From NCBI GenBank assembly GCA_002419055.1, contig DIFI01000021.1, positions 24,102 to 88,101 of the forward strand: a stretch of DNA of 64,000 bases, given 5' to 3'. Below are positions 11,403-37,268 of the stretch, piece after piece. The notes below the pieces were generated by a model. The model was not told the origin of the DNA, did no database searches, and saw only the letters and a list, made by a program, of their open reading frames with translations. How positions within the stretch are numbered: the first letter of the stretch is position 1; each line of letters begins with the position of its first letter. The DNA comes from Peptococcaceae bacterium UBA5752 (GTDB taxonomy: Bacteria; Bacillota; Dehalobacteriia; UBA4068). Both the position numbers and the translations under genes were made by a program.

Positions 11403-11463
11403 CTTAGTTGATTATACTCTGCCTTAATATAGATCAAAAAAAAAATTTAAGGAGTGATAGAAA

Positions 11464-17400: not shown

Positions 17401-19356
17401 GCTCTTGCTGATATTGTGGATAACGCTACCACGTCCCTGACCTTAGGCCTCGATCGAACCAGCGATGCGGACGGTGTTACGGTATATGAGCTGACGCTCA
17501 AAGACAGCGGCGGCAATAATGTCTTTACCGAAGGCTCCGCTACAGTCACATTGCCTTATACCCTGGCCGAAGCAAAAAGCCCTGATAGCGTCAAGGTTTT
17601 CTATGTGGCGAGCAACGGTACCAAGACAGAAGTGACCAATTGTACCTATGCCAACGGTTACGTCACTTTCACAGTTGAGCACTTCTCCACATACAGCATC
17701 GAGGCAGACAGCACCACAATCTCCGCAATTACCGCTGCCACTAATGCCAACGCCGGTGAAACCTTTACCGTCGATGTCAAGGTCAGCGGCGATGCAGCTC
17801 AGCAGTTTGCTTCCATGTCCGCCAATCTCAATTATGATAAGACCAAAGTAGCATTTGTAAGCTTTGCTGCGGGGGCCGGTACAACTGAAGCCAGCGCCTA
17901 TGATAATACAACTACCGCCAAGGTAAATATCCTCGAAAGCGGTGCGGATAAGACCATCGGCGCCGACGGCTTTGTGATCGGCACAATCACTTTCCGTGCC
18001 TTGACTGCCATCAGTACCGGCAATAGTGTTGCAGCTTTCTCTATCAGTGACGGTATGGTTGGTGATTCCGGTACACCGACTCCTGCGGTAAGCGCTTTGA
18101 GCGGTGCCAATATTTCCGTCAATTTGCATAATCTGGCGGTTATCTTCCAACAAGGCACGGGCAACACGCTGGCCGCTTCTACCGCATATGCCAAGTACAA
18201 TGCGGCGGGTCTCTTCGCCAGCAATGCCTATACCGATACTTTCACTATTCCTACTCCGGCAGCCTCTGATGGCTACCGCCTGGCGGATATCCTCTGGAAT
18301 AACGGTACCAACAATTACACTTCCGAACAGGTTGCGGCATTGGCTATAACCGCCAATGCGACCATGACTGCGCAATCAGTCAAAACCTACGCTGTAAGTT
18401 TCTATAATAGCGACGCCGCCCAGATAGGCAGCACCCAGAATATAGATACCGGCCTGACTGCCACTGCTCCGGCTGATCCTACTGCCCCGGCGGGCACTGC
18501 TTTTGTCGGTTGGTTTATAGCAGCCTCCAGCGACGCCACCTATGACGGCATTGCCACTCTCTACAGTAAAGCCCAGATTGACTTAGCTGCGGTGACTGCC
18601 GATACCATTTACAAAGCCTATTATTCAGATAATGAGTATGCGATCACCGTTCCTGTCGATGTGACCGTCGTCAGCGGCGTTACCGACAGTAAAGCCAAGC
18701 ACAACACTGACGTAGTCTTCACTGTCAGCACCACCACTGTGGATCAAGGTTATACCATCACTGTTTCCTATAAGGTAGGTACGGCTGATGCAGTAATCAT
18801 CACGAAGGATGCAGAGAACAAGTACACCATCCCCGGCTCTGCTATAACTGATGCGACAGTGATCACAGTCCAGAAAACGATCAACGGCACAATCAGCTAT
18901 ATCAACTATGACAATTACAAAGGCGCACCGGCCAATTATAAAGTGGCTCTGCTGACACTTAGCGACAGCGCTCCTGCGGATAGCAAATACCAGTATGACG
19001 GACAGGATATGTTTTTGGCTCAACCGGTCAATACTACTGCCGCATATGGTACCGGCGCCTACGTATTCTTCGTCGCCTCTGATGAGGATGCGGTGACTAC
19101 GTTATCCAAGATTGCGATTGTCAGCGGCACACAGCTGACTGTCGACTATGACGGAAACGTCAACGGTCTGAGTGAGGTAGAAATCAATGACGCGCAGTTG
19201 GTCTATGATTTGTATAATAATAACACCAATTATTCGTCCGACTTCAATCTCGCCACGATGCTGATGCGCTTTGAAGCCGATGTCAACGGCGACGGCACAA
19301 TCGGCGTCAACGACATCAGAATGATCTACAGCACTATCCGCGGTATCACTGAGTAA
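11464..19356 (+). CDS. Giant 2630-aa secreted multidomain protein: cohesin-like, 2x137-aa tandem repeats, Gly-rich beta-helix, 2 GLUG modules, Ig-like repeats, second cohesin-like, dockerin
   Basis: GTG start 9 nt after AAGGAG. Signal peptide. N-terminal cohesin-like GDSITIPVVITSNPGITAYGFAISYDSSNLTLDSI...NLFYLTFTVKNTA. Repeated GG[IV][AV]G...C[YI]N.GA[IV] GLUG periodicity. C-terminal DYDGNVNGLSEVEINDAQL / DVNGDGTIGVNDIRMI dockerin. A single uninterrupted ORF. Confidence 0.85.
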   Translation: MLQKLKKKNLTVLVIFIMVLALCVALPILATAEGTATVTVGSTTTAAAPGDSITIPVVITSNPGITAYGFAISYDSSNLTLDSISKTDNDSNTTDLCTSGSFTPNTASAGTGYVSWLDGGADITGTGNLFYLTFTVKNTAMGGNYAVSCTLTDGSAANCKNYAGSNVGVSFTDGIIEVVAPDTTAPTMTSVAPGEGLVALGASDNLVLTVTADDDAALSELEIDHSMEGTLPEFSVYADIANPYGTADDKAQFESAGVSVTYADGVWTIDFGSTITNTIVNNGGITFYMVLKDTSGNSWGSMSPTTAENTYAYTIARDTTAPTMTSVEPAEGAVELDASEDFVLTVTAHDDIELYELEIDHSMSSTLPEFSVYANSENPYGTAEDKAEFEAAGVSVTYGGGVWTIDFGDTATDAFVANGGITLYIVVKDMAGNSWGSMSPTTVENTYAYTITRKYIAAANFTDGVYAITSGGEYKLATDAAGTIQISTTDPVTISGNGTTGTANSGLSIDNTVAGADLTIEDLYITGAVTGSGMVEFTGKDNKLSLSGVSTLQRIGGSVWGNALIHVPATADLTIDGDGTVYLAQDGDGAAIGGNPSEINGNITINGGEIFCRSNKTGSSIGGGQSANGGNITINGGELNIFHNARGAILGGGGYSGSLVGNGGTVTMTGGNVSLFVNFTGAAIGGGGGSNSALEQDGGDLYITGGSLKTYINSNALSFWGLTTEGVTPVIITADKSTGVGGNAVHLLTMDVSGVTANDTGAAYVAYLDNETTDPIYSGGLHSYAYTGTSTNAMTYWQKSTTDNNLYLYVTGENHTVTVNDQKFNVTWDSGTSGFSVAAAPKIWDGTANTGWYNTTDTEFHLTMGNQLAGLAQIVNGTATGITQDSFSGKTVNIDNDIYLNDGTTSNNWTPIGDITHHFDGVFNGGGYNIYGMKIIATKGYAGLFGNVSGTVKNFKLYGSVTINSAIDGDIAKGSKTNTDNDFVGAAVGKLNAGGTISNVINYAPIEAKECMNVGGIVGFVGTPVTYGTKSDAYAEYNSNPSGSNTYVLNCGNNATVHGFYKLGGIAGESAGIVMYCYNTGYILPHMHGSGGGWGGIVGRNGNNNTATEVGTIAYCWNSGTVTDNGMNDDHNETIKWYGGITAFCNSKSSVHNCYNIGAIPAGRNTFSSIIGNCESTMVYNNCSLISTSINSDSTYEKNLGIQFEESDFKSAANTDTSILTVLGPVFVADTGNINNGYPVLRWQAGSSAEPTLTSVSLFSVPTKIAYYELETFNPAGMKLKATYSDGTYAILSGGFTYPTDPLSDSTNSVTVSYGGFDITQAITVYNLDSIAVTTQPTKTVYNATDLFNRSGMVVTVYYSDNTSKVIYSYTYPTTPLTDDMTSVTIGYGDKTTTQPITVNALGLTVIAVTTVPTKTFYLPDESFDNTGMVVNATYNSAVVQPLAAEDYVVTPASLTIGTTAVTISFTYLGVTQTASTPVTVISATPALVDGYYQIVSADDLRWFADYVSVQGNTTACAKLVNDITLTSDWTQPIGNSTNKFAGTFDGNGKTISGLDNAAVTTQNFGLIGYGLGATVKDLTVGGEISTTASNTGLVAGWADGCTFTNITANGSLTRASGTLNNTAGITGYACNASVLTNCVNNAAITSGGQYTGGIAGSADGATSFSGCINNGVINTTHRYIGGIVGSFGGTGNITSCINKGAVTATYNVGGIAGRYNSTGSMENCYNSGAIVATLSSTSTAYAAGGVIGYFGGAGTIDTCYNSGDVTGAIGNVGGVVGCMYAANSILTNSYNTGDVCYTGNATTPCVGGVVGATNDVSCTIQNCYNRGAVTFATTKPLIGSVVGTPKIGYTAISNNYYLNTTSADATSTAKTAAELKNLAATLGASYKAGGISPIFTWQPDEVFTSAAPVVNVDTVTADVPDTIVIGANANVEINASAVTVEDINTSNVSIPAALVENLDNAQSVTIVTNMGNITFDNAALADIVDNATTSLTLGLDRTSDADGVTVYELTLKDSGGNNVFTEGSATVTLPYTLAEAKSPDSVKVFYVASNGTKTEVTNCTYANGYVTFTVEHFSTYSIEADSTTISAITAATNANAGETFTVDVKVSGDAAQQFASMSANLNYDKTKVAFVSFAAGAGTTEASAYDNTTTAKVNILESGADKTIGADGFVIGTITFRALTAISTGNSVAAFSISDGMVGDSGTPTPAVSALSGANISVNLHNLAVIFQQGTGNTLAASTAYAKYNAAGLFASNAYTDTFTIPTPAASDGYRLADILWNNGTNNYTSEQVAALAITANATMTAQSVKTYAVSFYNSDAAQIGSTQNIDTGLTATAPADPTAPAGTAFVGWFIAASSDATYDGIATLYSKAQIDLAAVTADTIYKAYYSDNEYAITVPVDVTVVSGVTDSKAKHNTDVVFTVSTTTVDQGYTITVSYKVGTADAVIITKDAENKYTIPGSAITDATVITVQKTINGTISYINYDNYKGAPANYKVALLTLSDSAPADSKYQYDGQDMFLAQPVNTTAAYGTGAYVFFVASDEDAVTTLSKIAIVSGTQLTVDYDGNVNGLSEVEINDAQLVYDLYNNNTNYSSDFNLATMLMRFEADVNGDGTIGVNDIRMIYSTIRGITE
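12004..12825 (+). repeat. Two tandem ~411-nt (137-aa) near-identical coding repeats inside the giant gene
   Basis: PDTTAPTMTSVAPGEG...NTYAYTIA and RDTTAPTMTSVEPAEG...NTYAYTIT. High amino-acid identity; the nt-level similarity is visible by eye. Confidence 0.7.
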
Positions 19357-19384
19357 ATGCAGTAAGTAAGTTAGGAGAATACAA

Positions 19385-20722
19385 ATGAAACGATTTACAA
19401 TTACTATTATCGTTTGCATATTGATCTTTGCTTTGAGTATCTCCACCGCTTTGGCTGTTGATAACAGCAGAACATATTCTTTTCAACTCACCTCCAATGG
19501 CAGCAGTACTGCTGCCATTGGAGTGGGGGATATGATTACGGTGAAGTTTACTCTGGCGGCAGACAACAGCTATGCTTTGTATGCGATGCAGAATGAGATT
19601 AAGTATGACAGCCGCTATTTGCAATATGTTGATGGAAGCCTTAGTATGACCTCCGGTTTTAATTCCGGCTTTCGGGATATGGAGGATGGCATCAATAAAC
19701 TGGTGCTGATGAATTATGTTTCCGATACAGCAGAGGGAGAAACCATAAACTCCAGTGTCGTGGTGGGAACCTTCCAGTTGAAGGCCATCGCTAATGGAAC
19801 TTCGACTGTCAGCAACGAGGATTATTATTGCACAACCAAAACCGGTGCAAATAATTACACTGCTACCGCCAGTGATCTTATTGTCAACATTAAATCTTCC
19901 GGCGGCGGTGGCGGCGGTAGTAGTGTCACTTATTACACCATCAACGCCAGCGCCGGCGAGGGTGGCAGCATATCGCCTTCCGGCAGCGTCAGCGTAGCTC
20001 AGGACGGTTCACAAACTTTCACTATAAACCCCAACTATAGATATATTATAGAAGACGTACAGGTAGATGGCAAAAGCGTCGGCGACGTCAGCACATATGC
20101 CTTCTCCGCTGTCACTGCCAACCACACCATAAAAGCAACGTTCATTGCGGGAGAAGAGGAGCCAAACCTCACCGATCAATTCACCGACCTTGTCCCCGGC
20201 GCCTGGTATATAAACGGCATCAATTATGTTTTGCAGGCTGGACTGTTTAACGGTACCTCGGCAACCAGATTTAGTCCTGATGCCAATATGACGAGATCTA
20301 TGCTGGTAACGGTATTGTGGCGTTTAGACGGCACGCCTGACGCAACAGTAGACACCATCTTTAATGATGTGGCAGACGGTCTCTGGTACAGCGACGCTAT
20401 CGAATGGGCTGCGGCCAATAATATCGTCAACGGCTATGGCAACGGTAGGTTCGGTACCAATGACAGCATCACGCGCGAACAGATGGCGGTAATCTTATAT
20501 AACTATGCCAAAATTAAAGGTTACGATGTCAGCCAAACCACTTCACTCAGCAAATACACCGACACCGGCGATATTTCCGATTGGGCCAGCACAGCTATGG
20601 CCTGGGCCAATGCTACCGGCCTTGTCAACGGACGCACCGCTACAACTCTCGCTCCCGGCGGTACTGCCACAAGAGCTGAAGTTGCTACGATCTTAATGCG
20701 CTTTATCGAATATTACGTTTAA
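19385..20722 (+). CDS. Anchoring scaffoldin-like protein: cohesin-like domain + InlB-B-repeat-like middle domain + 3x SLH
   Basis: AGGAG RBS and a signal peptide. Cohesin-like MITVKFTLAADNSYALYAMQNEIKYDSRYLQYVDGS. Gly8 linker. Three SLH motifs (FTDLVPGAWYING.., FNDVADGLWYSDA.., YTDTGDISDWAST..). Confidence 0.85.
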   Translation: MKRFTITIIVCILIFALSISTALAVDNSRTYSFQLTSNGSSTAAIGVGDMITVKFTLAADNSYALYAMQNEIKYDSRYLQYVDGSLSMTSGFNSGFRDMEDGINKLVLMNYVSDTAEGETINSSVVVGTFQLKAIANGTSTVSNEDYYCTTKTGANNYTATASDLIVNIKSSGGGGGGSSVTYYTINASAGEGGSISPSGSVSVAQDGSQTFTINPNYRYIIEDVQVDGKSVGDVSTYAFSAVTANHTIKATFIAGEEEPNLTDQFTDLVPGAWYINGINYVLQAGLFNGTSATRFSPDANMTRSMLVTVLWRLDGTPDATVDTIFNDVADGLWYSDAIEWAAANNIVNGYGNGRFGTNDSITREQMAVILYNYAKIKGYDVSQTTSLSKYTDTGDISDWASTAMAWANATGLVNGRTATTLAPGGTATRAEVATILMRFIEYYV

Positions 20723-20874
20723 GTAACCAGTAAATTGACATTTAGCATAAAATTATAAGACCTTCCAATATATTGCAGTGCCCCCTAAGAAGACACAGGA
20801 AAAAGCGTGCAAAATCTACTTAGGGGGTATTATTATGGGTGAACATAGGAATTATGGTTTGGAAATTTAAACAA

Positions 20875-20907
20875 AAGGCCTGATATCTTTAAAATATCAG
20901 GCCTTTT
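20875..20907 (+). terminator. Rho-independent terminator (AGGCCTGATAT...ATATCAGGCCT TTTTT)
   Basis: Perfect 11-bp inverted repeat plus a T-run, downstream of 19385..20722. Confidence 0.55.
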
Positions 20908-20950
20908 TGGTGGGGCTATACAAAAGTCAACCAGTGACCTTGCATGTCAA
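20906..20950 (-). pseudogene. Degenerate copy of the 3' half of tRNA-Val (anticodon loop to CCA end)
   Basis: TGGTGGGGCTA...CCAGTGACCT...TGACATG here, versus TGGTGGGGCTAACTGGGCTCGAACCAGTGACCTCTACGATGTCAA in the intact gene at 22385. Same orientation. Confidence 0.4.
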
Positions 20951-21011
20951 ACAAGTATCTAAACAGCTGGGCTATAAGTTCGCAACAAATTTCAGACAAA
21001 GCCGCGCTTTT

Positions 21012-21515
21012 TTAGCGCCGGCGAATGATTCCACAAGCAATTTTAGGGCCTGATTTACCCGCGGGCTGTGTTGTAAAATCGTCGGGAGATCTGTGTAGCA
21101 CTACGGTTCGTCCGATTACTTCGGCAACGGTAAAGCGGTTGGTTAATACCGACATTAGTGCAAACCCGTTATTTCCAAACAGTGGAGGAAGATCGCCGGC
21201 ATGGTGAGGATGGTCGCAGTTGCCGGGATTATAGTGCATGCCGGTATTGGCAAACGGATCCTCGGCGTTTCCTGTACAGGCCGTTCCCTCATGGATATGG
21301 AAACCGAAAACATTGCTGTTGCATGGACCCGGCTCATTCGGTAGTCCGGTGACTCTGGCTGCCAGTATTACGCCTTTTTTTGTTTGATATAAATACACAA
21401 TTCCGTTTATATCTGGAAAATCGCTGCTGCCAGACAATTTCGCCATTGCTTCAGGCGACTTTTTAAGCAGTGTCCCCATATCGATAATTCGTGGCAATGA
21501 AATCATTTTTACCAC
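21012..21515 (-). CDS. Cu/Zn superoxide dismutase family protein (SodC/YojM-like)
   Basis: Motifs GFHIHE..C..., HYNP, HPHHAGDLP, ACGII. No obvious signal peptide. Confidence 0.75.
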   Translation of the reverse strand: MVKMISLPRIIDMGTLLKKSPEAMAKLSGSSDFPDINGIVYLYQTKKGVILAARVTGLPNEPGPCNSNVFGFHIHEGTACTGNAEDPFANTGMHYNPGNCDHPHHAGDLPPLFGNNGFALMSVLTNRFTVAEVIGRTVVLHRSPDDFTTQPAGKSGPKIACGIIRRR

Positions 21516-21660
21516 CTCCTGATAAAAATGTATGCCAAACTAATAAAAAAAATTTTAATATTTTATTTACTTTCCTTCCTGTAGCTTAGCATCTTTATTG
21601 GCGCGGATGTATTTGCAACATCATTGCGGTGTCTTCATATACTGTATCGAGGTGGTCAAT

Positions 21661-22341
21661 ATGCAGGCATCAGATTTAATTGAAGCGATGGAGTTATCGG
21701 CTGTCGCATACCGTAAGGTTCAGCCAGATTCCTTTGGCGGCTCTCTTATCACGATAGATGATCCAAAAACCGATATTCAATGCTACCTGCGCAAAAGAGA
21801 CGGCTGCCTTAGCATCACATTTAGGGGATCAAACTCCGGTAAGGACTGGAAAACGAACCTTGCTTTCGGACAAAAAACTATACCATATGGAAACAGCGCA
21901 TCAAAAATAAGAGTACATTACGGATTCATCGAGGCTTATAAATCTCATGCCGTGAGAGATGTCATCAACGATATAATATCCGACGACATTCATCAAGTAA
22001 AGATAACCGGTCATTCACAAGGCGCGGCGCTGGCCGTTTTGTGCGCAGTGGATCTGGAATATCACTACCCCGACAGGGACTTTGAGGTAATACTGTTCGG
22101 CGCACCGCGCGTGGGAAACCGTGCTTTCCAGAAATCCTATAACAAGAGATTATTCAAAACCATGCGCATCGAAAACGGCAACGATATCGTAACCAAGATT
22201 CCGTTTGCCTGCATGGGATATCGCCATGTCGGCATGGGTGTACATATCGGCAAACCGAAGATTCTGGGCGTCATCTCATTTAATGACCACTATCCTCAAG
22301 CCTATTACAAAAATCTTTTTAAACGAATTGAACTAAGATAA
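21661..22341 (+). CDS. Lipase class 3 / alpha-beta hydrolase
   Basis: ITGHSQGAALAVL nucleophile elbow. ATG 21661 (MQASDL) inside the longer ORF 21598. Confidence 0.7.
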   Translation: MQASDLIEAMELSAVAYRKVQPDSFGGSLITIDDPKTDIQCYLRKRDGCLSITFRGSNSGKDWKTNLAFGQKTIPYGNSASKIRVHYGFIEAYKSHAVRDVINDIISDDIHQVKITGHSQGAALAVLCAVDLEYHYPDRDFEVILFGAPRVGNRAFQKSYNKRLFKTMRIENGNDIVTKIPFACMGYRHVGMGVHIGKPKILGVISFNDHYPQAYYKNLFKRIELR

Positions 22342-22354
22342 ATACAACAAAATA

Positions 22355-22384
22355 CCTGCTATCTTATGGATAGCAGGTATTTTT

Positions 22385-22385
<1 letters not shown>
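22355..22385 (+). terminator. Rho-independent terminator (ACCTGCTATC...GATAGCAGGT + T7)
   Basis: 10-bp inverted repeat followed by TTTTTT, abutting the tRNA 3' end. Confidence 0.55.
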
Positions 22386-22461
<76 letters not shown>

Positions 22462-22585
22462 GCGACAAACTATATTATGCCTGAAAAAAGACAATAAGTC
22501 AATAATATTTTCAATAAAAATGTAGTAAAAAAGAAAGAAAACTTAAATAAGCAGCCTTTTTAGATTAATTATTTAGTGGTTAGTA

Positions 22586-22846
22586 CTATTCATCTGTCTG
22601 ATCATCATCGGGGAAGATTGGTTTACTGTTGCGGATATCATTTAAAATTGCCAGTATCCGCTGTTTATCTTCGGCAAAGCCAAAAACGCGCCCCCAACAG
22701 CCTTCGGTTAGTTCAAAGAGGTTGCCGTAAGCGCTGTCATCATTGCTTTGGATACGGAAGCTAATGCCTTCGTCGGTTAAGCATTGCTCAAGCAGCGCCG
22801 CCTCAAAGTTGTTTCCAATATCGGCTATTTTTATCACTTTAGACAT
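22586..22846 (-). CDS. Hypothetical 86-aa acidic protein
   Basis: GAAGGAG RBS 8 nt upstream. Lies immediately downstream of ftcD on the same strand. Confidence 0.45.
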   Translation of the reverse strand: MSKVIKIADIGNNFEAALLEQCLTDEGISFRIQSNDDSAYGNLFELTEGCWGRVFGFAEDKQRILAILNDIRNSKPIFPDDDQTDE

Positions 22847-22850
22847 AATT

Positions 22851-23780
22851 TTACTCCTTCATTAATAAACCATGTTCAACAAGTTGGGATTCGAGTATTT
22901 GACGTGGTGAAAAGTTGGTCATTCTCATCAACTGCCAATCACACCCGGCAAGGGATGCTTGCGGCGGCAAGCCGATAATCTCCGTTTCGGCGACTGCCGT
23001 ATTATAAGCGGCAGCCAGTTGACTGACACGCTCGAATACCTGTACGGGGGAAGTAATGCGATAATCCAACAAATTGCAGGATACCTGTGCGATACCGCGG
23101 GAATGCAAATCGACGGCTATCGATTTTACCTCTGCCATGCCGTTAGAGGAAAAGCGGATGGCTTTAGCGATAGCGCGGGCTGCCTCCATATCGTAACGGT
23201 TGAGATTGAAGTTGATGGCAATCAGGAAGAAGCGGCTGCCGATTACCGCTGCACCAAACGTCGGATGGGGGTGTCGGCGGCCGAAATCGGGACGCCATTC
23301 TTGGGTCTGCAGTTTAGCGCTCAAGCCCTCAAAATTACCTCGCCGCAGTTCTGAAAGATTGTCACGGCCGCTAATCAGAGCAGCTTGGCCGTATAGATAA
23401 ACAGGTAGTTGCAGTTCCTTGGCTACATTTTCCCCAAAATTGCGGGCGACAATACCGCAATATTCCAGATCAGCACCGGCAACGGGTATAAAAGGTGTGA
23501 CATCAACGGCGCCGATCCGCGGATGTGCGCCTCGGTGTGTGTTGAGATCAAAATGTTCTAAAGCAAATACAAATCCGTTGAACAGCGCCTCCGTTATACT
23601 TTCCGGTTTGCCGGCCAACGTATAAACGCTGCGGTTGTGGTCATAATCGCTACTGTAATCAAGCAAGCCAACGCCGCTGATTTTGTCCATAGTTACCGCC
23701 AATTTTTCTAAGAGACGAAGATCGCGTCCTTCGCTGAAATTAGGGACCGATTCAATTAGTGGCGGTGTTTTAATCATCAT
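22851..23780 (-). CDS. ftcD: Glutamate formimidoyltransferase (formiminotransferase domain only)
   Basis: N-terminal IESVPNFSEGRD is the classic FtcD formiminotransferase start. Length 309 aa with no cyclodeaminase domain. Confidence 0.8.
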   Translation of the reverse strand: MMIKTPPLIESVPNFSEGRDLRLLEKLAVTMDKISGVGLLDYSSDYDHNRSVYTLAGKPESITEALFNGFVFALEHFDLNTHRGAHPRIGAVDVTPFIPVAGADLEYCGIVARNFGENVAKELQLPVYLYGQAALISGRDNLSELRRGNFEGLSAKLQTQEWRPDFGRRHPHPTFGAAVIGSRFFLIAINFNLNRYDMEAARAIAKAIRFSSNGMAEVKSIAVDLHSRGIAQVSCNLLDYRITSPVQVFERVSQLAAAYNTAVAETEIIGLPPQASLAGCDWQLMRMTNFSPRQILESQLVEHGLLMKE

Positions 23781-23913
23781 TTATCCTCTAAATAGAAATT
23801 CGATAACAATTTAAATATATTATATATATTATTTAATGTCAAATTAGCTTTATTAAATATAGGAAAATATGTTATAATTTACTGAAATTTAATTCAGAAA
23901 GCAGGGGAAAAAA

Positions 23914-25296
23914 TTGAAAATTTGCTTTCAAAAACTAATTGTTATAATGATAATTACATCATTGGTAATTGCGTGCGGCAGTGCAGTATTAGCAGCCGAT
24001 ATCACTGTTACCATCAGCGGCGACGGTGTTACTACGCAACAAAGCTTTACCGGTGAGCAATTGGCGGCAATGACTGATCAAATACAGCAGCATTATTATT
24101 CCTCAATTAATAACTGGCCCACCAATAAAAATGTTTATGCGAAAGGCATCTCGCTTTCATATTTGTTGCAGCTGTCGGGTATCAAGGATGAGGCTACCTT
24201 GATTAAGATCACCAGCACCGACGGATATTACAAAACTTTTACCGTCTCCGAGTTGCTAGATTCCGAGCGTTACAGCTACAGTGACGGTAGAGCTACAGAA
24301 GTGCCGGTAATTTTAGGCTTGCAAAGCAGCGATAGTTCTTTCGCATCTATGACGGACGATCAGGCCCCGGTATTGGTAATAGGACAGCGCGCGGCAACAG
24401 AACAAACATTTCCTTGGTTTATTAAAAACGTTAGTACTATAGAAGTCAGCGCTGATACGTTAGCGCGGTGGCCGCAAGCAACATATGAGATTAACGATGC
24501 TGCAAACGGTTATCAGCTGGAGCTGAATCATAGCAATTTTGATACGGTTAAGCTCTATTATACAACTGACAGCACTACCCCGTCTGTTGAGAGTAATATG
24601 TATAATATCAGCACTACCTATTGGCAACCGGATCTGATCGTGCCGCTGCAGCTTACCGCCGGTACGGTTGTCAAAGTTATCGCCATCGGCCCCGGCAAGC
24701 CGGACAGTGAAGTTGTGACCATCAACTTGCCGACAACATCTGCCGGAACAGACCTGTCGTTTAGCGATGTGGCAAAAAACAGCTGGTATTATGATGCAGT
24801 TGATTATGTTAGTAACAAGGGATTATTCCAAGGCACATCGATAACAACATTTTCGCCCATGGCTCCAATGACACGCGCCATGTTTGTAACGGTACTTTAT
24901 CGGCTTTCCGGTGAGATATATTCGTCTACTACGGCCAAATTTAGCGATGTAGAATCCGGCAGTTGGTATGCCGATGCCGTTACCTGGGCTTCCGAAAAGG
25001 GAATAGTCAACGGTTACGGTAATGGTACATTCAGACCGTTAAATGCGGTGACCAGGGAGCAGATGGCTTTGATAATGTTCAATTATCTTAAATGCATTGG
25101 CGAAGGACCGCAGGGAGCTTGGATGATCAACCTAAATTACCCGGACAAATCTGCTATCAGTGATTGGGCTTTTGAAGCGGTAACGTATTGTACAATGAGA
25201 GGTTTGCTCAGCGGACGCAGTAACGGCAATTTTGATCCGCAGGGAACGGCCAACAGAGCGGAAGTGGCGACAGTGATGATGCGCTTTGACAAATAA
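23914..25296 (+). CDS. SLH-anchored (3x SLH) surface protein with N-terminal RYYYP-type domain
   Basis: TTG start (ATG 23947 is an alternative). Signal-like N-terminus. HYYSSINNWP...GISLSYLLQLSGI...ITSTDGYY...ERYSYS. Three SLH motifs at the C-terminus. Confidence 0.75.
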   Translation: MKICFQKLIVIMIITSLVIACGSAVLAADITVTISGDGVTTQQSFTGEQLAAMTDQIQQHYYSSINNWPTNKNVYAKGISLSYLLQLSGIKDEATLIKITSTDGYYKTFTVSELLDSERYSYSDGRATEVPVILGLQSSDSSFASMTDDQAPVLVIGQRAATEQTFPWFIKNVSTIEVSADTLARWPQATYEINDAANGYQLELNHSNFDTVKLYYTTDSTTPSVESNMYNISTTYWQPDLIVPLQLTAGTVVKVIAIGPGKPDSEVVTINLPTTSAGTDLSFSDVAKNSWYYDAVDYVSNKGLFQGTSITTFSPMAPMTRAMFVTVLYRLSGEIYSSTTAKFSDVESGSWYADAVTWASEKGIVNGYGNGTFRPLNAVTREQMALIMFNYLKCIGEGPQGAWMINLNYPDKSAISDWAFEAVTYCTMRGLLSGRSNGNFDPQGTANRAEVATVMMRFDK

Positions 25297-30575: not shown

Positions 30576-30977
30576 ATGGCTCGTTATAGAAGCGGCCGTC
30601 TGGCCGGAGAAATCCAAAAACAAGTGGCGCAAATTATCAGCAGAGATCTCAAAAATCCGCAACTGGATCTGGTATCGATATTGGCTGTTGACGCTTCTCC
30701 CGATTTCAGCTCAGCGCGGATTTATATCAGCCCGCCGCTGGGACGAGAAGATGAGAGTGATTTAATTGCGGCAGCTTTAGAAAATTCCAAAGGTTATATC
30801 CGTCATTTGTTGGGGCAGCGGATGAAGATGCGGCAAATACCCGAACTGTATTTCCATATCGATAATTCGATTGCCTATGGTGTGAAAATGATCAGTATTA
30901 TAGATAAACAAATAGAGGACGATAAGGCAAAGGCTGCCTTGCGTCCGCCGGAAGAGGAAAATAAGTATGAAAAGTGA
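30576..30977 (+). CDS. rbfA: Ribosome-binding factor A
   Basis: Follows infB by 2 nt. RbfA-like sequence. Confidence 0.9.
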   Translation: MARYRSGRLAGEIQKQVAQIISRDLKNPQLDLVSILAVDASPDFSSARIYISPPLGREDESDLIAAALENSKGYIRHLLGQRMKMRQIPELYFHIDNSIAYGVKMISIIDKQIEDDKAKAALRPPEEENKYEK

Positions 30978-31941
30978 TTACGGAGTATTGATCGATAAAC
31001 TCCGTGACTGCCATGAGATAATTGTTTGTGGTCATGTAAACCCGGATCCGGATTGCATAGGCACTATGCTGGCGTTGGATCAAGCTTTTGCTGGGAAAAG
31101 CAAAGGTTGGCGATTGGTAATGGATGAACCGGTACCGTCATATCTTGACTATCTTGACGGTATCGATAGATTTATTACTTCGGATGCGTTGGATATTCGG
31201 CCGCAAAAGGTGTTGTTGGTGGATTGCAGTGAACCGGAACGTTGTGGCAGCTGGCTGCCGCCGTTGATTGAGCAATATCAGCCGCAGCTTTATTGCCTTG
31301 ACCATCATCTCAGCAATGAATTTGTCGGTGATGGCATGGTACTGGAGACCGACGCTGCCGCCAGCGGCGAAATTGCCGCCGTATTGTTGGAGAAAGCCGG
31401 TATCGAAATTGATACGGCTATAGCTACCCAACTTTATACTGCGATTGTCGGTGATACCGGTTGCTTCCGTTATACCAATACTACACCGCGAACGCTGCGT
31501 ATCGGCGCTGATTTGTTAGCCAAACATATCGATGTAGAACAGATCAGAATCAGGCTATTTGAAAGTCATTCATATACAAATATGCAAATGATCCGCGTGG
31601 CCTTCGAAAATATGCAGGTAGAACTCAACGGTCAGCTATGCTATATGATAATCGATCATCAATCGATGCTGGATGCGGGTGCAGCAAGCGGTGATTGTGA
31701 TAATATCGTCAGCAATACATTGACATTGAGCGGTGTTAAAATCGGTTTGCTGTTTGAAGAATATCCGGATATGGTCAAAGTCAGTATGCGTTGCCGCAAT
31801 GGTTATCGCGTTGATCATTTAGCACAGAGTTTCGGCGGCGGAGGCCATTTACTGGCTAGTGGCTGTCGTATCAAGGCCAGCCTGGAGCAGGCCAAGACAG
31901 AGGTTTTAGCGGCAGCGCGTCAGCTGTTGCAAGCGCAATAG
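30967..31941 (+). CDS. nrnA: DHH/DHHA1 phosphoesterase (NrnA-like oligoribonuclease/pAp phosphatase)
   Basis: Motifs DHH (LDHH), GGGH. Conserved position between rbfA and truB. Confidence 0.8.
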   Translation: MKSDYGVLIDKLRDCHEIIVCGHVNPDPDCIGTMLALDQAFAGKSKGWRLVMDEPVPSYLDYLDGIDRFITSDALDIRPQKVLLVDCSEPERCGSWLPPLIEQYQPQLYCLDHHLSNEFVGDGMVLETDAAASGEIAAVLLEKAGIEIDTAIATQLYTAIVGDTGCFRYTNTTPRTLRIGADLLAKHIDVEQIRIRLFESHSYTNMQMIRVAFENMQVELNGQLCYMIIDHQSMLDAGAASGDCDNIVSNTLTLSGVKIGLLFEEYPDMVKVSMRCRNGYRVDHLAQSFGGGGHLLASGCRIKASLEQAKTEVLAAARQLLQAQ

Positions 31942-31988
31942 CATTGCAGTAAATAATTATAGAGCCAAAAGATGTGGTGGTAGATATC

Positions 31989-33827
31989 ATGGACGGTTTC
32001 ATCAATATCAACAAAGAGCCTGGCATCTCTTCTCATGGTGTCGTGGCCGCCGTGAGGCGGCTTTTGCATTGTAAGGCTGGCCATTGCGGTACGCTTGATC
32101 CTGCGGCCGGCGGAGTGCTGCCGGTTTGCATCGGCAAAGCGACCAGACTGGCCGAATATATCAGCGGCGGCGTTAAACGTTATCGCGGCACGGTAGTTTT
32201 CGGCATAGAAACAGACAGTTACGATGCGATGGGTGCTGAGGTCGGTCGAGCCAGCGCCGCGCATTTAAACCGCCAGGATATTGAAGCATTGCTGCCGCAA
32301 TTCATAGGTGAAATCGACCAGATACCGCCTGTGGTATCGGCCCTAAAAAGCGGTGGCGTACCGCTTTATAAGCGCTTTCGCCGTGGAGAGGATATCGAAG
32401 TTGCTGCCCGCAAGGTGCGGATTTATGATATTGAGCTTAAAAATTTTCGGCCGGGCGTTGAAACAGCCGAGGCAGAAATTGAGGTCGAATGCGGGCAGGG
32501 GACATATATCCGTTCGATTGCCCACGATTTGGGACAGCTTTGCGGTTGTGGCGCTCACCTTGCTCATCTACAGCGTTTGCAAGTTGGCGATTTTAGGATT
32601 GAAACGGCGCTGACGCTTGAACGATTGGCGGAAATTATTGCTGCGGGTGAAGACGATTGGTTATTGCCGATGCAGTATCCATTGGCTAATTGGCCGCGAT
32701 TTGTGGTTACCGATCAGCAACTGCGTCAGGTTTTGCATGGCAACCCTTTATGCTTAGGGCCTGAAACAGAACCGGTGGAGTTGTGTTTAGTGGAAAACAG
32801 TGACGGAGTATTACTTGGCATAGCTAATATTCTTAACAATGATACTAAGGAAGGTGCAGTACTGAATATGACAAAGGTATTGGCTGATCCGCCTGCTGCC
32901 AAAAAATATGATGCGGTGGTAATAGGTAATTTTGACGGAGTGCATTTGGGACATCGTGCTTTATTTAGTGAGCTTTATCGGATTAAACAGCAAACAGGGG
33001 CTGTGACGGCGGCTGTGACGTTCGATCCTCATCCGATGGCATTGATCAAAGGCAAAATGCCGCCGTTACTCAATGCTGCGGAAGCAAAAATTGCGCTGAT
33101 CAAAAAATATTTTGCTGTTGATGAAGTAGTGGTGTTACCTTTTGATCAGCAACTGATGAACAGCACGCCGCAGCAATTTGTGGATAGGATAATTTGTTGC
33201 GTACTCAAAGCATCGCAGGTAATCGTTGGCTATAATTTTAGTTTCGGCGCCGGTGGACAAGGAAACGCCCAGATGCTCAAAGAACTGTGTGAACCCCGCG
33301 GCATCAAAGTGATGATCATAGATCAAGTGACGTCACCTTATGGCGATATCTCATCATCCAATATTCGTGAGCGTCTGTCGCGCGGCGATATGGAAGCGGC
33401 TAATTATATGCTTGGCTATTGGTATACATTGGCCGGTGAGGTTGTTCGCGGCAAAAGTATTGGCCGTACACTAGGTTTTCCAACGGCTAATTTTTATCCG
33501 GCGACTGATAGAGTTTATATACCCTGCGGCGTATATGCCGTTCGTGTAGAACATAATAGAATAACTTATGATGGTGTAGCCAATTACGGTTACAAACCGA
33601 CGGTTGGCAATTTCCTGCAGCCATCGATTGAGGTGCATATTTTCAATCAAGATATCACGCTCTACGGCGAAAATATCAAAGTTTGTTTTGGTGAATTTAT
33701 TCGTCCCGAACATAAATTTGACAATCTTGATCAACTGAGAGAGGAAATCGGCAGAAACAAGGAAACAGCCAAAGATTTTTTAATTACTCAAAATGCAGAT
33801 AAACACTTGCCAAAGCCGATCAAATAG
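31989..33827 (+). CDS. In-frame fusion of tRNA pseudouridine55 synthase TruB with bifunctional riboflavin kinase/FAD synthetase RibF
   Basis: The ORF is uninterrupted. TruB motifs GHCGTLDP through the PUA-like end run to about aa 295. RibF follows: VVIGNFDGVHLGH ... the riboflavin-kinase domain. A possible internal start (MTKV) sits at 32868. Confidence 0.75.
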   Translation: MDGFININKEPGISSHGVVAAVRRLLHCKAGHCGTLDPAAGGVLPVCIGKATRLAEYISGGVKRYRGTVVFGIETDSYDAMGAEVGRASAAHLNRQDIEALLPQFIGEIDQIPPVVSALKSGGVPLYKRFRRGEDIEVAARKVRIYDIELKNFRPGVETAEAEIEVECGQGTYIRSIAHDLGQLCGCGAHLAHLQRLQVGDFRIETALTLERLAEIIAAGEDDWLLPMQYPLANWPRFVVTDQQLRQVLHGNPLCLGPETEPVELCLVENSDGVLLGIANILNNDTKEGAVLNMTKVLADPPAAKKYDAVVIGNFDGVHLGHRALFSELYRIKQQTGAVTAAVTFDPHPMALIKGKMPPLLNAAEAKIALIKKYFAVDEVVVLPFDQQLMNSTPQQFVDRIICCVLKASQVIVGYNFSFGAGGQGNAQMLKELCEPRGIKVMIIDQVTSPYGDISSSNIRERLSRGDMEAANYMLGYWYTLAGEVVRGKSIGRTLGFPTANFYPATDRVYIPCGVYAVRVEHNRITYDGVANYGYKPTVGNFLQPSIEVHIFNQDITLYGENIKVCFGEFIRPEHKFDNLDQLREEIGRNKETAKDFLITQNADKHLPKPIK

Positions 33828-33829
33828 GT

Positions 33830-34013
33830 TATAATAGCTGCACAGCAGCTCGAAATCTATGATTTCGAGGCTGAGCGTCTATTTAAGCTCATGCTTTTCC
33901 CATAAGGGAAAAGACAGCTAGAATAGCTGCGCGTACTAAAAATCCCTATCTGGGTTTGACGATGCTCCGACGCTTTCTCGGATATGGGGGATAAAAATAA
34001 AGGAGGTGCCGTT
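33830..34013 (+). promoter_or_regulatory. Structured rpsO leader (three consecutive perfect hairpins)
   Basis: Stems AGCTG/CAGCT, CTCGAAATC/GATTTCGAG and TTTTCCC/GGGAAAA lie upstream of the AGGAGG RBS. Confidence 0.3.
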
Positions 34014-34277
34014 ATGGATTCGGCAGCAAAACAACAAATTATTGAAAAATATCGTGTTCATGAGACCGATACCGGTTCGCCGGAAGTACAAATCGCTATC
34101 CTCAGTTATCAAATTAATTATTTGACTGAGCATCTGAAGATCCACAAAAAGGATTTTCATAGCCGCCGCGGTCTTTTGAAGATGGTTGGCCAACGCCGTG
34201 GTCTTTTGAATTATCTTAAGGGCAAAGACATTGACCGTTATCGTAAGATAATTACTTCTCTTGGCCTGCGTCGTTAA
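34014..34277 (+). CDS. rpsO: 30S ribosomal protein S15
   Basis: ATG 34014 after AGGAGG. S15 sequence. Confidence 0.95.
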
Positions 34278-34296
34278 ATTAAAAGCAAAAGTAAAA

Positions 34297-34327
34297 CACC
34301 CTCTATTGACAGAGGGTGTTTTTTTAT
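34297..34327 (+). terminator. Rho-independent terminator (CACCCTCT...AGAGGGTG + T9)
   Basis: 8-bp perfect stem followed by TTTTTTTAT. Confidence 0.7.
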
Positions 34328-34468
34328 ATGTAAAATTATCTAAATATTTTTTAATGTTATTAAGTCAGATAATATGGCAAGCAGGAGATGAGATATATTT
34401 GTTGAATATTCATAAGTTAATAAAAAAGTGAAAAAGTGAAAGAATAAGTAGGTATGGAGGGTAATTTT

Positions 34469-36622
34469 ATGAATCAAATTTTAACAAAGAGTATTGAAGT
34501 CAGCGGACGGCAGCTGACGCTGGAAACGGGGCGGATGGCCAAGCAGGCCGGTGGTGCTGTTTTCGTATCCTATGGCGATACCATGGTATTGTCGGCCGCG
34601 ACTATGAGCGACGTGCCTCGTAACGGAGTTGACTTTTTTCCGTTATCTGTTGATTATGAAGAAAAAATGTATGCTGTCGGCAAGATTCCCGGCGGTTTTA
34701 TCAAAAGAGAAGGACGCCCCAGTGAGAAAGCAGTGCTTTCATCGCGGATTATCGATAGACCATTGCGTCCGCTGTTTCCCAAAGCGATGCGTAACGATGT
34801 GCAGGTAATTAATACCGTAATGTCGGTTGATAATGATAATGCTCCGGATATGACGGCGATGATCGGCGCTTCAGCGGCGCTGCATATTTCTAAAATACCT
34901 TTTGGCGGACCTATTGCCGGTGTTATTGTCGGTTATGTTGACGGTGAATTTATCTTAAATCCCACAGTTGACCAAGAGGAAAAAAGTTTGATGCATTTGG
35001 CGGTCGCGGGTACTGCTGATGCGGTTATGATGGTAGAGGCGGGGGCAAAAGAGGTGCCGGAGGAAATAATCCTTGAAGGTATTTTGTATGCTCATCAAAA
35101 TATCAGATTAATTGTTGAATTCATTGAAGAGTTCAGAGCCGAAGCCTTAACGATGGGATTGGCAAAAGAAAAATGGCTATATGTTGAAGAAGAGATAGAT
35201 GCCGCGTTGGTGGAAAAAATTAAAGAACTTGCCACTCAACCGATGAAAGATCTGATGTACCGTTGTTGCCAGGAGCATTTGGATAAAGCAACGCGGGAGA
35301 ATTTGATTAAAGAATTAAATGATAGTATTAAACAACAATTAGCAGAAGAATATCCCGATTCTTCCGCACAAATCGGCGGAGTCATTTATAAAATAGAAAA
35401 AGAAACTATGCGTTCGCTGATAGCCAAAGATAAAATCAGAATTGATGGCCGCGCGATCAACGAAGTACGTCCGATCTCCTGTGAAGTGGGCGTTTTGGCG
35501 CGGGCACACGGTTCTTCGCTGTTTACCAGAGGTCAAACACAGATATTAAATGCGCTGACTCTGGGCACTATCAGCCAGGAACAGATCTTGGATGGGCTTG
35601 GCGTAGAAGATTCAAAACGGTATATGCATCAATATAACTTCCCGCCTTACAGCGTCGGCGAGACGCGTCCGATGCGCAGCCCGGGCCGCAGAGAAATCGG
35701 TCATGGCGCTTTGGCGGAACGTGCACTGTTGCCGGTAATACCTTCCGAGGAGGCTTTCCCCTATGCGCTGAGGCTGGTTTCGGAGGCTATCGAATCTAAC
35801 GGTTCTACTTCGATGGGCAGCGTTTGTGCCAGCACTTTGTCGCTGATGGATGCCGGTGTTCCGATATCCTCGCCTGTCTCCGGTTGTGCAATGGGCCTGA
35901 TTAAAGAGGGCGAAGATATTACAATTCTTACCGATATTCAGGGTATGGAAGATTTTCTCGGCGATATGGACTTTAAAGTTGCCGGTACGGTGCATGGAGT
36001 GACTGCTATCCAAATGGATATCAAGATTGCCGGTATCGGTAAAGAAATTCTTACCCGTGCTTTAACACAGGCCAAAGAAGGCCGTGCCTTTATCCTTGGC
36101 AAGATGCTGGAAGCACTAGCCGAGCCGCGTCAAGAGCTTTCACCATATGCGCCGCGGATTATCACCATCCAGATTAATCCAGATAAAATAAGAGAAGTCA
36201 TCGGTTCCGGCGGTAAAGTAATCAAGAAGATTATTGAAGAAACAGGCGCTGCAATTGATATTGAAGATGACGGCAGAATATTTATTGCCAGCGTCGATGC
36301 GTTAGCCGGTGACAGAGCTCTGAAAATTATCAATAGTATTGTAGCGGAGCCGGAAGTCGGCAAAATTTATGAAGGCAAAGTAGTAAAAATTATGGATTTT
36401 GGCGCTTTTGTAGAGATTATTCCCGGCGTGCTGGGAGCCGGCGGTAAAGACGGTATGGTCCATATATCCCAATTGGCGAGCAAGCGCGTAGATAAAGTCA
36501 CTGATGTTTGCGCGGAAGGCGATACAATGTGGGTTAAGTGCATAGGCGTCGAAGCTGCAACAGGTAAAGTTAAGCTTTCGCATAAGGATGCGTTGAAGGA
36601 AATGGGCTTAAAAGAGGAATAA
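34469..36622 (+). CDS. pnp: Polyribonucleotide nucleotidyltransferase (PNPase)
   Basis: ATG 34469 lies 6 nt after GGAGGG. Two RNase PH domains, KH, S1. Confidence 0.95.
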
Positions 36623-36638
36623 TCAGGAGGCGTTGAAT

Positions 36639-37268
36639 ATGAAGGTTTTACTGATAAACGGTAGTCCCCATAAACAAGGCTGCACATTTACGGCATTAAC
36701 GGAAGTAGCGTCCGCGATCGCGGACGCTACTATCGATACAGAAATATTTCATATCGGTAGTCAGCCTCTTCGCGGTTGCTGCGGTTGTAAAGTTTGCCGC
36801 AAAGACAATATTAACCGCTGCGCCTTTGACGATGATTGCGTCAATATCGCATTGGCAAAAGCCAAGGAAGCAGACGGCTTTGTTTTCGGTTCTCCGGTAC
36901 ATTTTGCGGGAGCTTCCGGCAGCATCACCTCATTTTTAGACCGCTTATTTTATGCGGGAAGCGGCTTCTTTGCTTATAAACCGGGCGCTGCTATCGTAAC
37001 TTGCCGCCGTGGCGGTGCGACAGCAGCCGTGGAGCAACTGAATAAATATTTCATGTATGCCCAGATGCCGGTAGTATCATCTCAATATTGGAATATGGCT
37101 CATGGCAATACGCCCCAAGAGCTGGTTCAGGATGCCGAGGGTATGCAGATCATGCGGGTTTTAGGTAAAAACATGACCTGGTTACTTAAATCAATCGAAG
37201 CCGGACGTTTGGCAAATGTTGAATTACCAAAACAAGAAAAAAAGGTCGCAACGAACTTTATTCGATAA
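36639..37268 (+). CDS. Iron-sulfur flavoprotein (NADPH-dependent FMN reductase family, compact Cys motif)
   Basis: MKVLLINGSPH flavodoxin-like start. GCCGCKVCRKDNINRC cysteine cluster. AGGAGG RBS. Confidence 0.7.
   Translation: MKVLLINGSPHKQGCTFTALTEVASAIADATIDTEIFHIGSQPLRGCCGCKVCRKDNINRCAFDDDCVNIALAKAKEADGFVFGSPVHFAGASGSITSFLDRLFYAGSGFFAYKPGAAIVTCRRGGATAAVEQLNKYFMYAQMPVVSSQYWNMAHGNTPQELVQDAEGMQIMRVLGKNMTWLLKSIEAGRLANVELPKQEKKVATNFIR

Follow-up and report, generated by a model that had tools for sequence, protein, structure and literature searches.

The stretch analysed here, a window of 64,000 nucleotides (nt) from contig DIFI01000021.1 of Peptococcaceae bacterium UBA5752, carries on its forward (+) strand a long open reading frame (ORF) in which truB, the gene for tRNA pseudouridine-55 (psi55) synthase, continues into ribF, the gene for flavin adenine dinucleotide (FAD) synthetase. 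An earlier note on this DNA had placed both genes in one ORF of 612-617 amino acids (aa) without a stop between them, which the ORF listing and the sequence bear out. The locus very probably represents a genuine and evolutionarily fixed fusion of two operon neighbours, in which a complete TruB is joined by a short tether to a complete RibF. Its features are listed below; SD stands for Shine-Dalgarno, FMN for flavin mononucleotide, JGI for Joint Genome Institute and AF2 for AlphaFold2.

31975-31982, + strand: SD-like element TGGTGGTA (dG -6.2; 6-nt spacer to the ATG at 31989)
31989-33827, + strand: truB::ribF fused ORF, 612 aa followed by a TAG stop (ORF listing, sequence, Pfam, NCBIfam; same gene in the JGI and Logan assemblies)
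31989-32681, + strand: TruB catalytic module, residues 1-231, TruB_N and TruB_C_2 (Pfam, NCBIfam, PDB alignment)
32682-32882, + strand: TruB PUA domain, residues 232-298 (AF2 strands, ends of unfused TruB proteins, PF09157 matches in relatives)
32847-32856, + strand: SD-like, purine-rich run AAGGAAGGTG, which encodes K-E-G in the PUA hairpin turn and lies 11 nt before the ATG at 32868
32868-32870, + strand: internal in-frame ATG (Met294), a residue of the last PUA strand and a possible but unfavoured start
32883-32912, + strand: interdomain linker ADPPAAKKYD, residues 299-308 (predicted coil; length and sequence variable across the clade)
32913-33374, + strand: RibF FMN adenylyltransferase module, residues 309-462 (Pfam, NCBIfam, PDB alignment)
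33411-33782, + strand: RibF riboflavin kinase module, residues 475-598 (Pfam, PDB alignment, motif survey)

Coding frame, domain content and relatives

Two in-frame starts were listed for the ORF on the + strand, a GTG at 31974 giving 617 aa and the ATG at 31989 giving 612 aa. The ATG is the likelier start, because the SD-like element lies 6 nt upstream of it, the N-terminus of homologues reads MDGFININK, and the GTG is nearly without an SD sequence (pairing of only -2.1 kcal/mol). In the raw sequence, no stop codon occurs between the TruB and RibF parts. The encoded protein matches the Pfam domains TruB_N (residues 27-174), TruB_C_2 (175-231), FAD_syn (306-457) and Flavokinase (475-598), each match spanning almost the entire profile and that of PF01687 being covered full-length, with scores of 162.2 bits for PF01509, 139.1 bits for PF06574 and 127.9 bits for PF01687. 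Among NCBIfam models, the TruB equivalog TIGR00431 scores 219.9 bits over residues 1-213 (cut-off 151.45), the ribF equivalog TIGR00083 scores 254 bits over residues 310-598 (cut-off 184.35), and NF004162 scores 255.2 (cut-off 241). Judged by this domain content, the single polypeptide comprises, in order, a complete TruB (residues 1-298), a linker of 10 residues and a type-I RibF that is likewise complete (residues 309-612).

The catalytic Asp37 of the TruB module (codon GAT at 32097-32099), which lies within GHCGTLDP and aligns to E. coli TruB, is invariant in a 61-sequence alignment. In the same alignment, H319, G321 and H322 of the HxGH motif (H319-L-G-H322 at 32943-32954, within GNFDGVHLGH) and S455 of SSSNIR are also invariant, and P498 of PTAN is nearly so; the riboflavin kinase motif GFPTAN occupies residues 496-501, with PTAN at 33480-33491. 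The RibF part aligns with the FAD synthetase (FADS) of C. ammoniagenes gap-free through HxGH, NF(T/S)FG, SS(T/S)xxR, PTAN and the Glu of (V/I)E, which are established as the catalytic residues of that enzyme, and the full set of four catalytic motifs was found in 100 of 120 homologues. Since the catalytic motifs are intact and conserved, the fusion is expected to be trifunctional, combining psi55 synthase, FMN adenylyltransferase and riboflavin kinase activities, rather than bifunctional as the earlier note had it.

The identical 1,839-nt gene, together with 7.8 kb of identical flank, is present both on a 161-kb JGI contig (3300002219, 'SCADCLC') and in an independent Logan re-assembly of SRR636559; the gene called in both encodes the identical protein. 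The names of the JGI contig and the Logan read set tie the window to SCADC, a short-chain-alkane-degrading methanogenic enrichment known for an uncultivated Peptococcaceae (PMC4161757). The closest species representative, Peptococcaceae bacterium UBA4068 (L001), contains the same single ORF at 84% aa identity. Over junction codons 290-312, the two sequences differ by 8 synonymous-only changes and 1 conservative V to I change, which shows that the junction is under purifying selection in the fused frame; between the same two genes, synonymous changes number 92 in the TruB part and 95 in the RibF part, and aa changes 52 and 44, respectively.

A comparison of orthologous loci, which the earlier note had put forward as a check, showed that relatives from the clade of the window (85% to ~44% identity) retain the single ORF. 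More than 100 clusters (90% identity, ~600-630 aa) share the four-domain architecture at 85% to ~32% identity to the query. At the DNA level, the ORF is uninterrupted in L001-L005, L007 and L163-L169, and the available flanks of these DNA-checked relatives keep the context of rbfA, DHH phosphoesterase, fusion and rpsO. The identical assemblies and the single ORF kept across relatives strongly support a genuine fusion, the first of the two alternatives offered in the earlier note.

The junction and the internal start codon

The sequence MTKV had been read as the N-terminus of RibF. This placement is wrong, as M294-T-K-V-L298 is the last PUA beta-strand of TruB, and the true boundary lies ~5-15 residues further downstream, with RibF beginning from about K305/A309. 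The assignment of x-K-V-L to the last TruB strand follows from unfused TruB proteins that end likewise. In L006, the closest unfused relative (49% identity), TruB ends in GRIKDSLLFMDKVLAAE before its stop (FMDKVLAAE); a spacer of 14 nt containing a GGGGGT SD comes next, and the RibF after it starts MSLDEKKPYKAAAIGNFDG. In the unfused L101, TruB ends in LLVDKVLVDIQVAE, and the GTG of ribF overlaps the stop (TAGTG). B. subtilis truB ends in GLLKPAKVLMQKSEQ (short form, KPAKVLMQKSEQ), according to the sequence printed in PMC9820800. The idea that the split in L006 is itself a frameshift artefact of a fused gene was considered and rejected, because this locus has, besides the spacer with its SD, a proper stop and its own ATG.

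An AF2 model of the fusion was built from the 61-sequence alignment, with a mean predicted local distance difference test (pLDDT) score of 93 and a predicted template modelling (pTM) score of 0.60. In this model, the PUA region at residues 237-297 is beta-rich with high pLDDT, containing strands at 263-269, 275-283 and 290-297, and is followed by a coil at 298-308 and the first strand of the FMN adenylyltransferase module at 309-312; the mean pLDDT is 95 for residues 291-300 and 81 for residues 301-310. Relatives match PF09157 in the PUA region. In PDB alignments, residues 2-281 pair with E. coli TruB 1k8w (E 1.4e-44) and residues 307-607 with residues 16-326 of C. ammoniagenes RibF 2x0k (E 4.7e-49), and the alignment with T. 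maritima RibF begins at residue 310 (its residue 3). The PDB alignments and the AF2 strands bracket the same boundary, and the linker is therefore ~10 residues long, ADPPAAKKYD. It appears to be made of the former TruB C-terminal tail and the first RibF residues (KKYDAVVIGN, compared with KKPYKAAAIGN in L006).

The in-frame ATG to which the earlier note had drawn attention is present at 32868-32870, and its use as a start for RibF is possible in this species; such a start is, however, not favoured, and it is not conserved in the family. If internal initiation did occur, a free RibF of 319 aa would be made beside the tethered form, and TruB would still be made solely as the fusion. Pairing of the purine-rich run AAGGAAGGTG with a generic anti-SD amounts to -6.8 to -7.3 kcal/mol, which is similar to real starts (median -7.7) and is reached by just 1.1-2.3% of the internal ATGs in long ORFs of the window. 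Nevertheless, the run encodes the conserved (E/Q/G)-G of the PUA hairpin turn, and its spacer of 11 nt falls outside the 0-10 nt (mostly 5-6) of 37 of the 38 SD-bearing starts in the window. Of the 65 clade members, 50 have Met here, and purine-rich runs lie 9-12 nt upstream of it in L002, L163, L164, L167 and L168, whereas L165 and L166 are without a usable SD and the position is L, P, I, T or V in 15 of the 65, 14 of which have no Met at all between the modules. The 15-residue extension that RibF would receive is normal (15 residues precede the first strand in C. ammoniagenes), but Met294 is a central residue of a PUA beta-strand that the model predicts with confidence. Dual output of fused and free RibF is accordingly rather unlikely. 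Met294 as a conserved internal start was rejected as a family feature, given the same Met in the unfused TruB of L006 and its absence from 15 of 65 fused proteins, and since a stand-alone TruB also has Met there, its conservation is explained structurally.

Recurrence and origin of the fusion

An exhaustive HMMER search covered 1.84 billion 50%-identity representatives, and the best 150 hits were inspected. Among these best 150 hits, at least 75 were fusions; these 75 had the GTLD motif of TruB as well as the HxGH motif of RibF, always in the order TruB to RibF, and the distance from GTLD to HxGH ranged over 197-438 residues. In a neighbour-joining (NJ) tree of TruB and RibF, concatenated for unfused loci and without support values, the clade of the window (clade A, P0001-P0064) was monophyletic, and its sister was the unfused pair L006 and L101. 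A second fused clade (clade B, P0065-P0098, including Ca. Cryptoclostridium obscurum L007 and 'Peptococcaceae' metagenome-assembled genomes from the gut) branched next, and the remaining fused forms were scattered among unfused lineages. In clade A, xKVL is separated from the G of GNFDG by 11-36 residues, with invariant flanking motifs, and in clade B, KPxKIL is followed by an RKRK-rich stretch of ~28-33 aa. One more group of fusions lacks the PUA domain (546-579 aa, P0099-P0117), and a further group (P0103/P0112/P0115) has WRPxKVV followed by long Pro/Ala-rich linkers. Because the junctions are unrelated and these lineages are placed among unfused ones, the fusions outside clade A are probably independent, and the fusion appears to have arisen repeatedly. 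It is a minority state, as most lineages keep truB and ribF separate; among the distant metagenome loci listed, 0 of 38 adjacent truB-ribF pairs were fused (general patterns GTLDP and FDGxHxGH).

Two groups of fused proteins show variations of their own. In clade B (L003, L004, L007 and P0065-P0098), a basic stretch, RKRK/RRRK, is conserved in the linker, and most members have a Met ~14 residues past the PUA strand (…KILY.KRKRKQQM…), the Lys/Arg codons of L003 being AAAAGGAAGCG. This linker may be a translated remnant of the old ribosome-binding site (RBS) and start codon of ribF. In subclade P0053-P0064 (~570-605 aa; for example, L002 3241-5151), TruB and the FMN adenylyltransferase module are retained and PTAN is lost, and no Flavokinase Pfam match was obtained even at E<=0.1, despite ~120-150 residues after FAD_syn. 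The riboflavin kinase module of this subclade looks decayed, which implies either that a separate kinase is encoded at another locus or that flavin is salvaged in the form of FMN.

Many unfused pairs are arranged very closely. A single in-frame stop is all that separates the genes in L083, L087-L089, L092-L095, L100 and L102, where the frame of ribF opens at the base next to the truB stop, and stop and start overlap in L015 (GTGA), L059 and L065 (TGATG) and L101 (TAGTG). Such pairs need just one point mutation or a 1-nt indel to become fused, so that the recurrence of the fusion is to be expected. Most likely, the truB stop codon disappeared together with the very short spacer or overlap that preceded a translationally coupled ribF, and the linker was formed from the C-terminal tail of TruB and the first residues of RibF. 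The three active sites are expected to work independently on a flexible tether. The main consequence would be obligatory 1:1 co-expression from the infB-rbfA-nrnA-truB::ribF operon. That the modules act independently is suggested by linkers that are short, variable and of Pro/Ala/charged composition, together with the moderate pTM. A neutral or mildly advantageous fusion of neighbouring genes is the best-supported reading. The data directly show the unbroken ORF, the completeness of its domains, the conservation of the fusion and the purifying selection at the junction, from which we infer the mode of fusion, the independence of the modules and the absence of a special function.

It is improbable that the fusion was instead favoured by selection for a physical or pathway-level cooperation between TruB and RibF, such as a tethering of flavin cofactor synthesis to tRNA or ribosome maturation. 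Fusions in this one order are found, with unrelated junctions, in many lineages, and truB-ribF adjacency is very widely conserved, but the order TruB to RibF is what stop-codon loss between coupled neighbours predicts, the linkers are short, variable and of low complexity, a pTM of 0.60 comes with no confident inter-module interface, most lineages hold the genes separate, and one subclade keeps the fusion while its kinase module has decayed. No TruB-RibF interaction was found described in the literature searched. We likewise give little credence to the more general claim that recurrent TruB to RibF fusions are a Rosetta-stone signal, with psi55 synthase and FAD synthetase interacting physically or functionally in bacteria generally. 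If this were true, flavin cofactor supply could, for example, be coupled to flavin-dependent tRNA modification or ribosome maturation, and the protein of the window would be a natural, covalently locked version of a TruB-RibF complex. FAD or FMN is used by TrmFO, which makes m5U54 next to psi55, and by MnmG and the Dus enzymes.

That the protein is effectively monofunctional, with one module surviving only as a decaying remnant, is very improbable: subclade P0053-P0064, without PTAN and without a Flavokinase match, indicates that modules can decay inside the fusion, but the protein of the window retains GHCGTLDP with D37, HLGH at 319-322, SSSNIR and GFPTAN, and the hidden Markov models of the TruB and RibF equivalogs both exceed their cut-offs. 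It is of practically negligible probability that the fusion is an artefact of sequencing or assembly, created from what are really two genes by a single-base error that abolished the truB stop or caused a frameshift. This other alternative of the earlier note is refuted by relatives and other assemblies that keep the frame; none of the 38 distant metagenome pairs is fused and many unfused pairs are one stop codon away from fusion, so that an error could mimic one, but the DNA is identical in the JGI and Logan assemblies, a different species (84% identity) is also fused with only synonymous drift through the linker, the fusion extends, down to 44% identity, to at least 64 more clusters that come from many samples and were assembled with many programs, and the junction is without a remnant stop or an RBS and start arrangement of the L006/L101 kind.

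Several points weigh against a genuine fusion of a single origin that acts as one chain of independent modules. The JGI and Logan assemblies may derive from one read set, and the full-length product of ~68 kDa is predicted from the sequence. The unsupported NJ tree does not prove a single origin of the fusion within clade A. The internal ATG has a strong SD-like element before it, which places it among the top 1-2% of internal ATGs. Furthermore, a pTM of 0.60 leaves the relative placement of the modules undefined, with a functional interface neither excluded nor shown by the model.

Neighbouring genes, known systems and significance

The other features recorded in the window are the following.

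9705-11402, + strand: 565-aa protein with a C-terminal type-I dockerin
11464-19356, + strand: 2630-aa ORF, mostly unannotated, whose sole Pfam matches are two cohesin stretches (best 2089-2203)
19385-20722, + strand: 445-aa anchor protein with cohesin and three SLH domains
23914-25296, + strand: 460-aa SLH protein with Fn3_assoc/CHB_HEX_C domains
30967-31941, + strand: DHH/DHHA1 phosphoesterase (NrnA-like), the upstream operon neighbour, following infB and rbfA called further upstream
33807-33835, + strand: promoter-like TTGCCA-17-TATAAT, candidate rpsO promoter (11 of 12 consensus matches; consensus match only)
34014-34277, + strand: rpsO (S15, 87 aa), the downstream neighbour (ORF listing)
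34293-34322: terminator-like hairpin after rpsO
34454-36622: pnp, after the rpsO hairpin

The promoter-like element overlaps the last codons and the stop of the fused ORF. A leader of 178 nt up to the rpsO ATG at 34014 is strongly structured (minimum free energy -60.9 kcal/mol, z = -3.68, 0 of 200 shuffles as stable). Rfam gave no match to it, even at E<=1, nor to anything else near the locus. The leader is a candidate for autoregulation by S15, of a type that Rfam does not contain. Over the whole window, the sole Rfam match at the gathering threshold is a tRNA gene at 22388-22461 on the - strand (72.9 bits). An NADPH-dependent FMN reductase (FMN_red, 36633-37268, + strand) directly follows pnp, two genes downstream of the fusion, and the presence of this flavoprotein gene near the RibF fusion is possibly a coincidence. 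The genes with cohesin, dockerin and SLH domains form a cluster at 9705-25296 on the + strand, which by its domains would be cellulosome-like scaffolding in a bacterium of an alkane-degrading methanogenic enrichment.

No paper describing a TruB-RibF fusion was found in the searchable literature, where solely papers on operon adjacency turned up. The 'truB-ribF operon' of the gut consists of separate adjacent genes (PMC4630832), and in B. subtilis a ribC promoter lies between truB and ribC (PMC9820800). The fusion has the gene order, domains, neighbours and xKVL strand of the separate truB and ribF/ribC in the nusA-infB-rbfA-truB-ribF-rpsO-pnp region; it differs in that separate-gene systems have a stop and an RBS or an overlapping start between the genes, whereas the window has a continuous frame with a 10-aa linker. 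Compared with type-I RibF (2x0k; T. maritima 1mrz), the protein aligns end to end with 2x0k and shares HxGH, SSxxxR and PTAN, but it has a 298-residue N-terminal TruB and its own RibF leader is cut to a few residues. With bacterial TruB (E. coli 1k8w/1r3f; T. maritima 1r3e/1ze1) it shares the catalytic Asp and the PUA domain, but its chain runs on past the PUA domain, without a stop, into RibF. Other lineages with a TruB-RibF fusion show the same module order and four Pfam domains, with junctions unrelated to that of the window. RibR of B. subtilis is a riboflavin kinase fused to an RNA-binding domain, the RNA-binding part of which targets the FMN riboswitch. The likeness lies in a flavokinase and an RNA-binding module in one chain; that part of RibR is unrelated to TruB or PUA, and there is no sign here of the TruB part regulating flavin genes.

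The fused architecture is already catalogued in databases, and by all the defining sequence features examined, each half is an ordinary TruB or type-I RibF. Several homologues carry the JGI name 'riboflavin kinase/FMN adenylyltransferase/tRNA pseudouridine(55) synthase', and NCBI names other fusion relatives only 'bifunctional riboflavin kinase/FAD synthetase', dropping TruB. Under the latter naming, a genome with the fusion can look as if it were without truB, so that the practical value of the finding is in annotation; there is also a risk that the fused ORF is taken for an error and divided by gene callers or curators. The evidence does not suggest a new mechanism, and the fusion is an old variant architecture, common to many uncultured relatives, that is real, conserved and fairly ordinary. 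It offers a clean example of translationally coupled neighbours collapsing into one gene, repeatedly and in one direction, and the covalently linked TruB and RibF provide a natural handle on whether truB-ribF adjacency reflects interaction.

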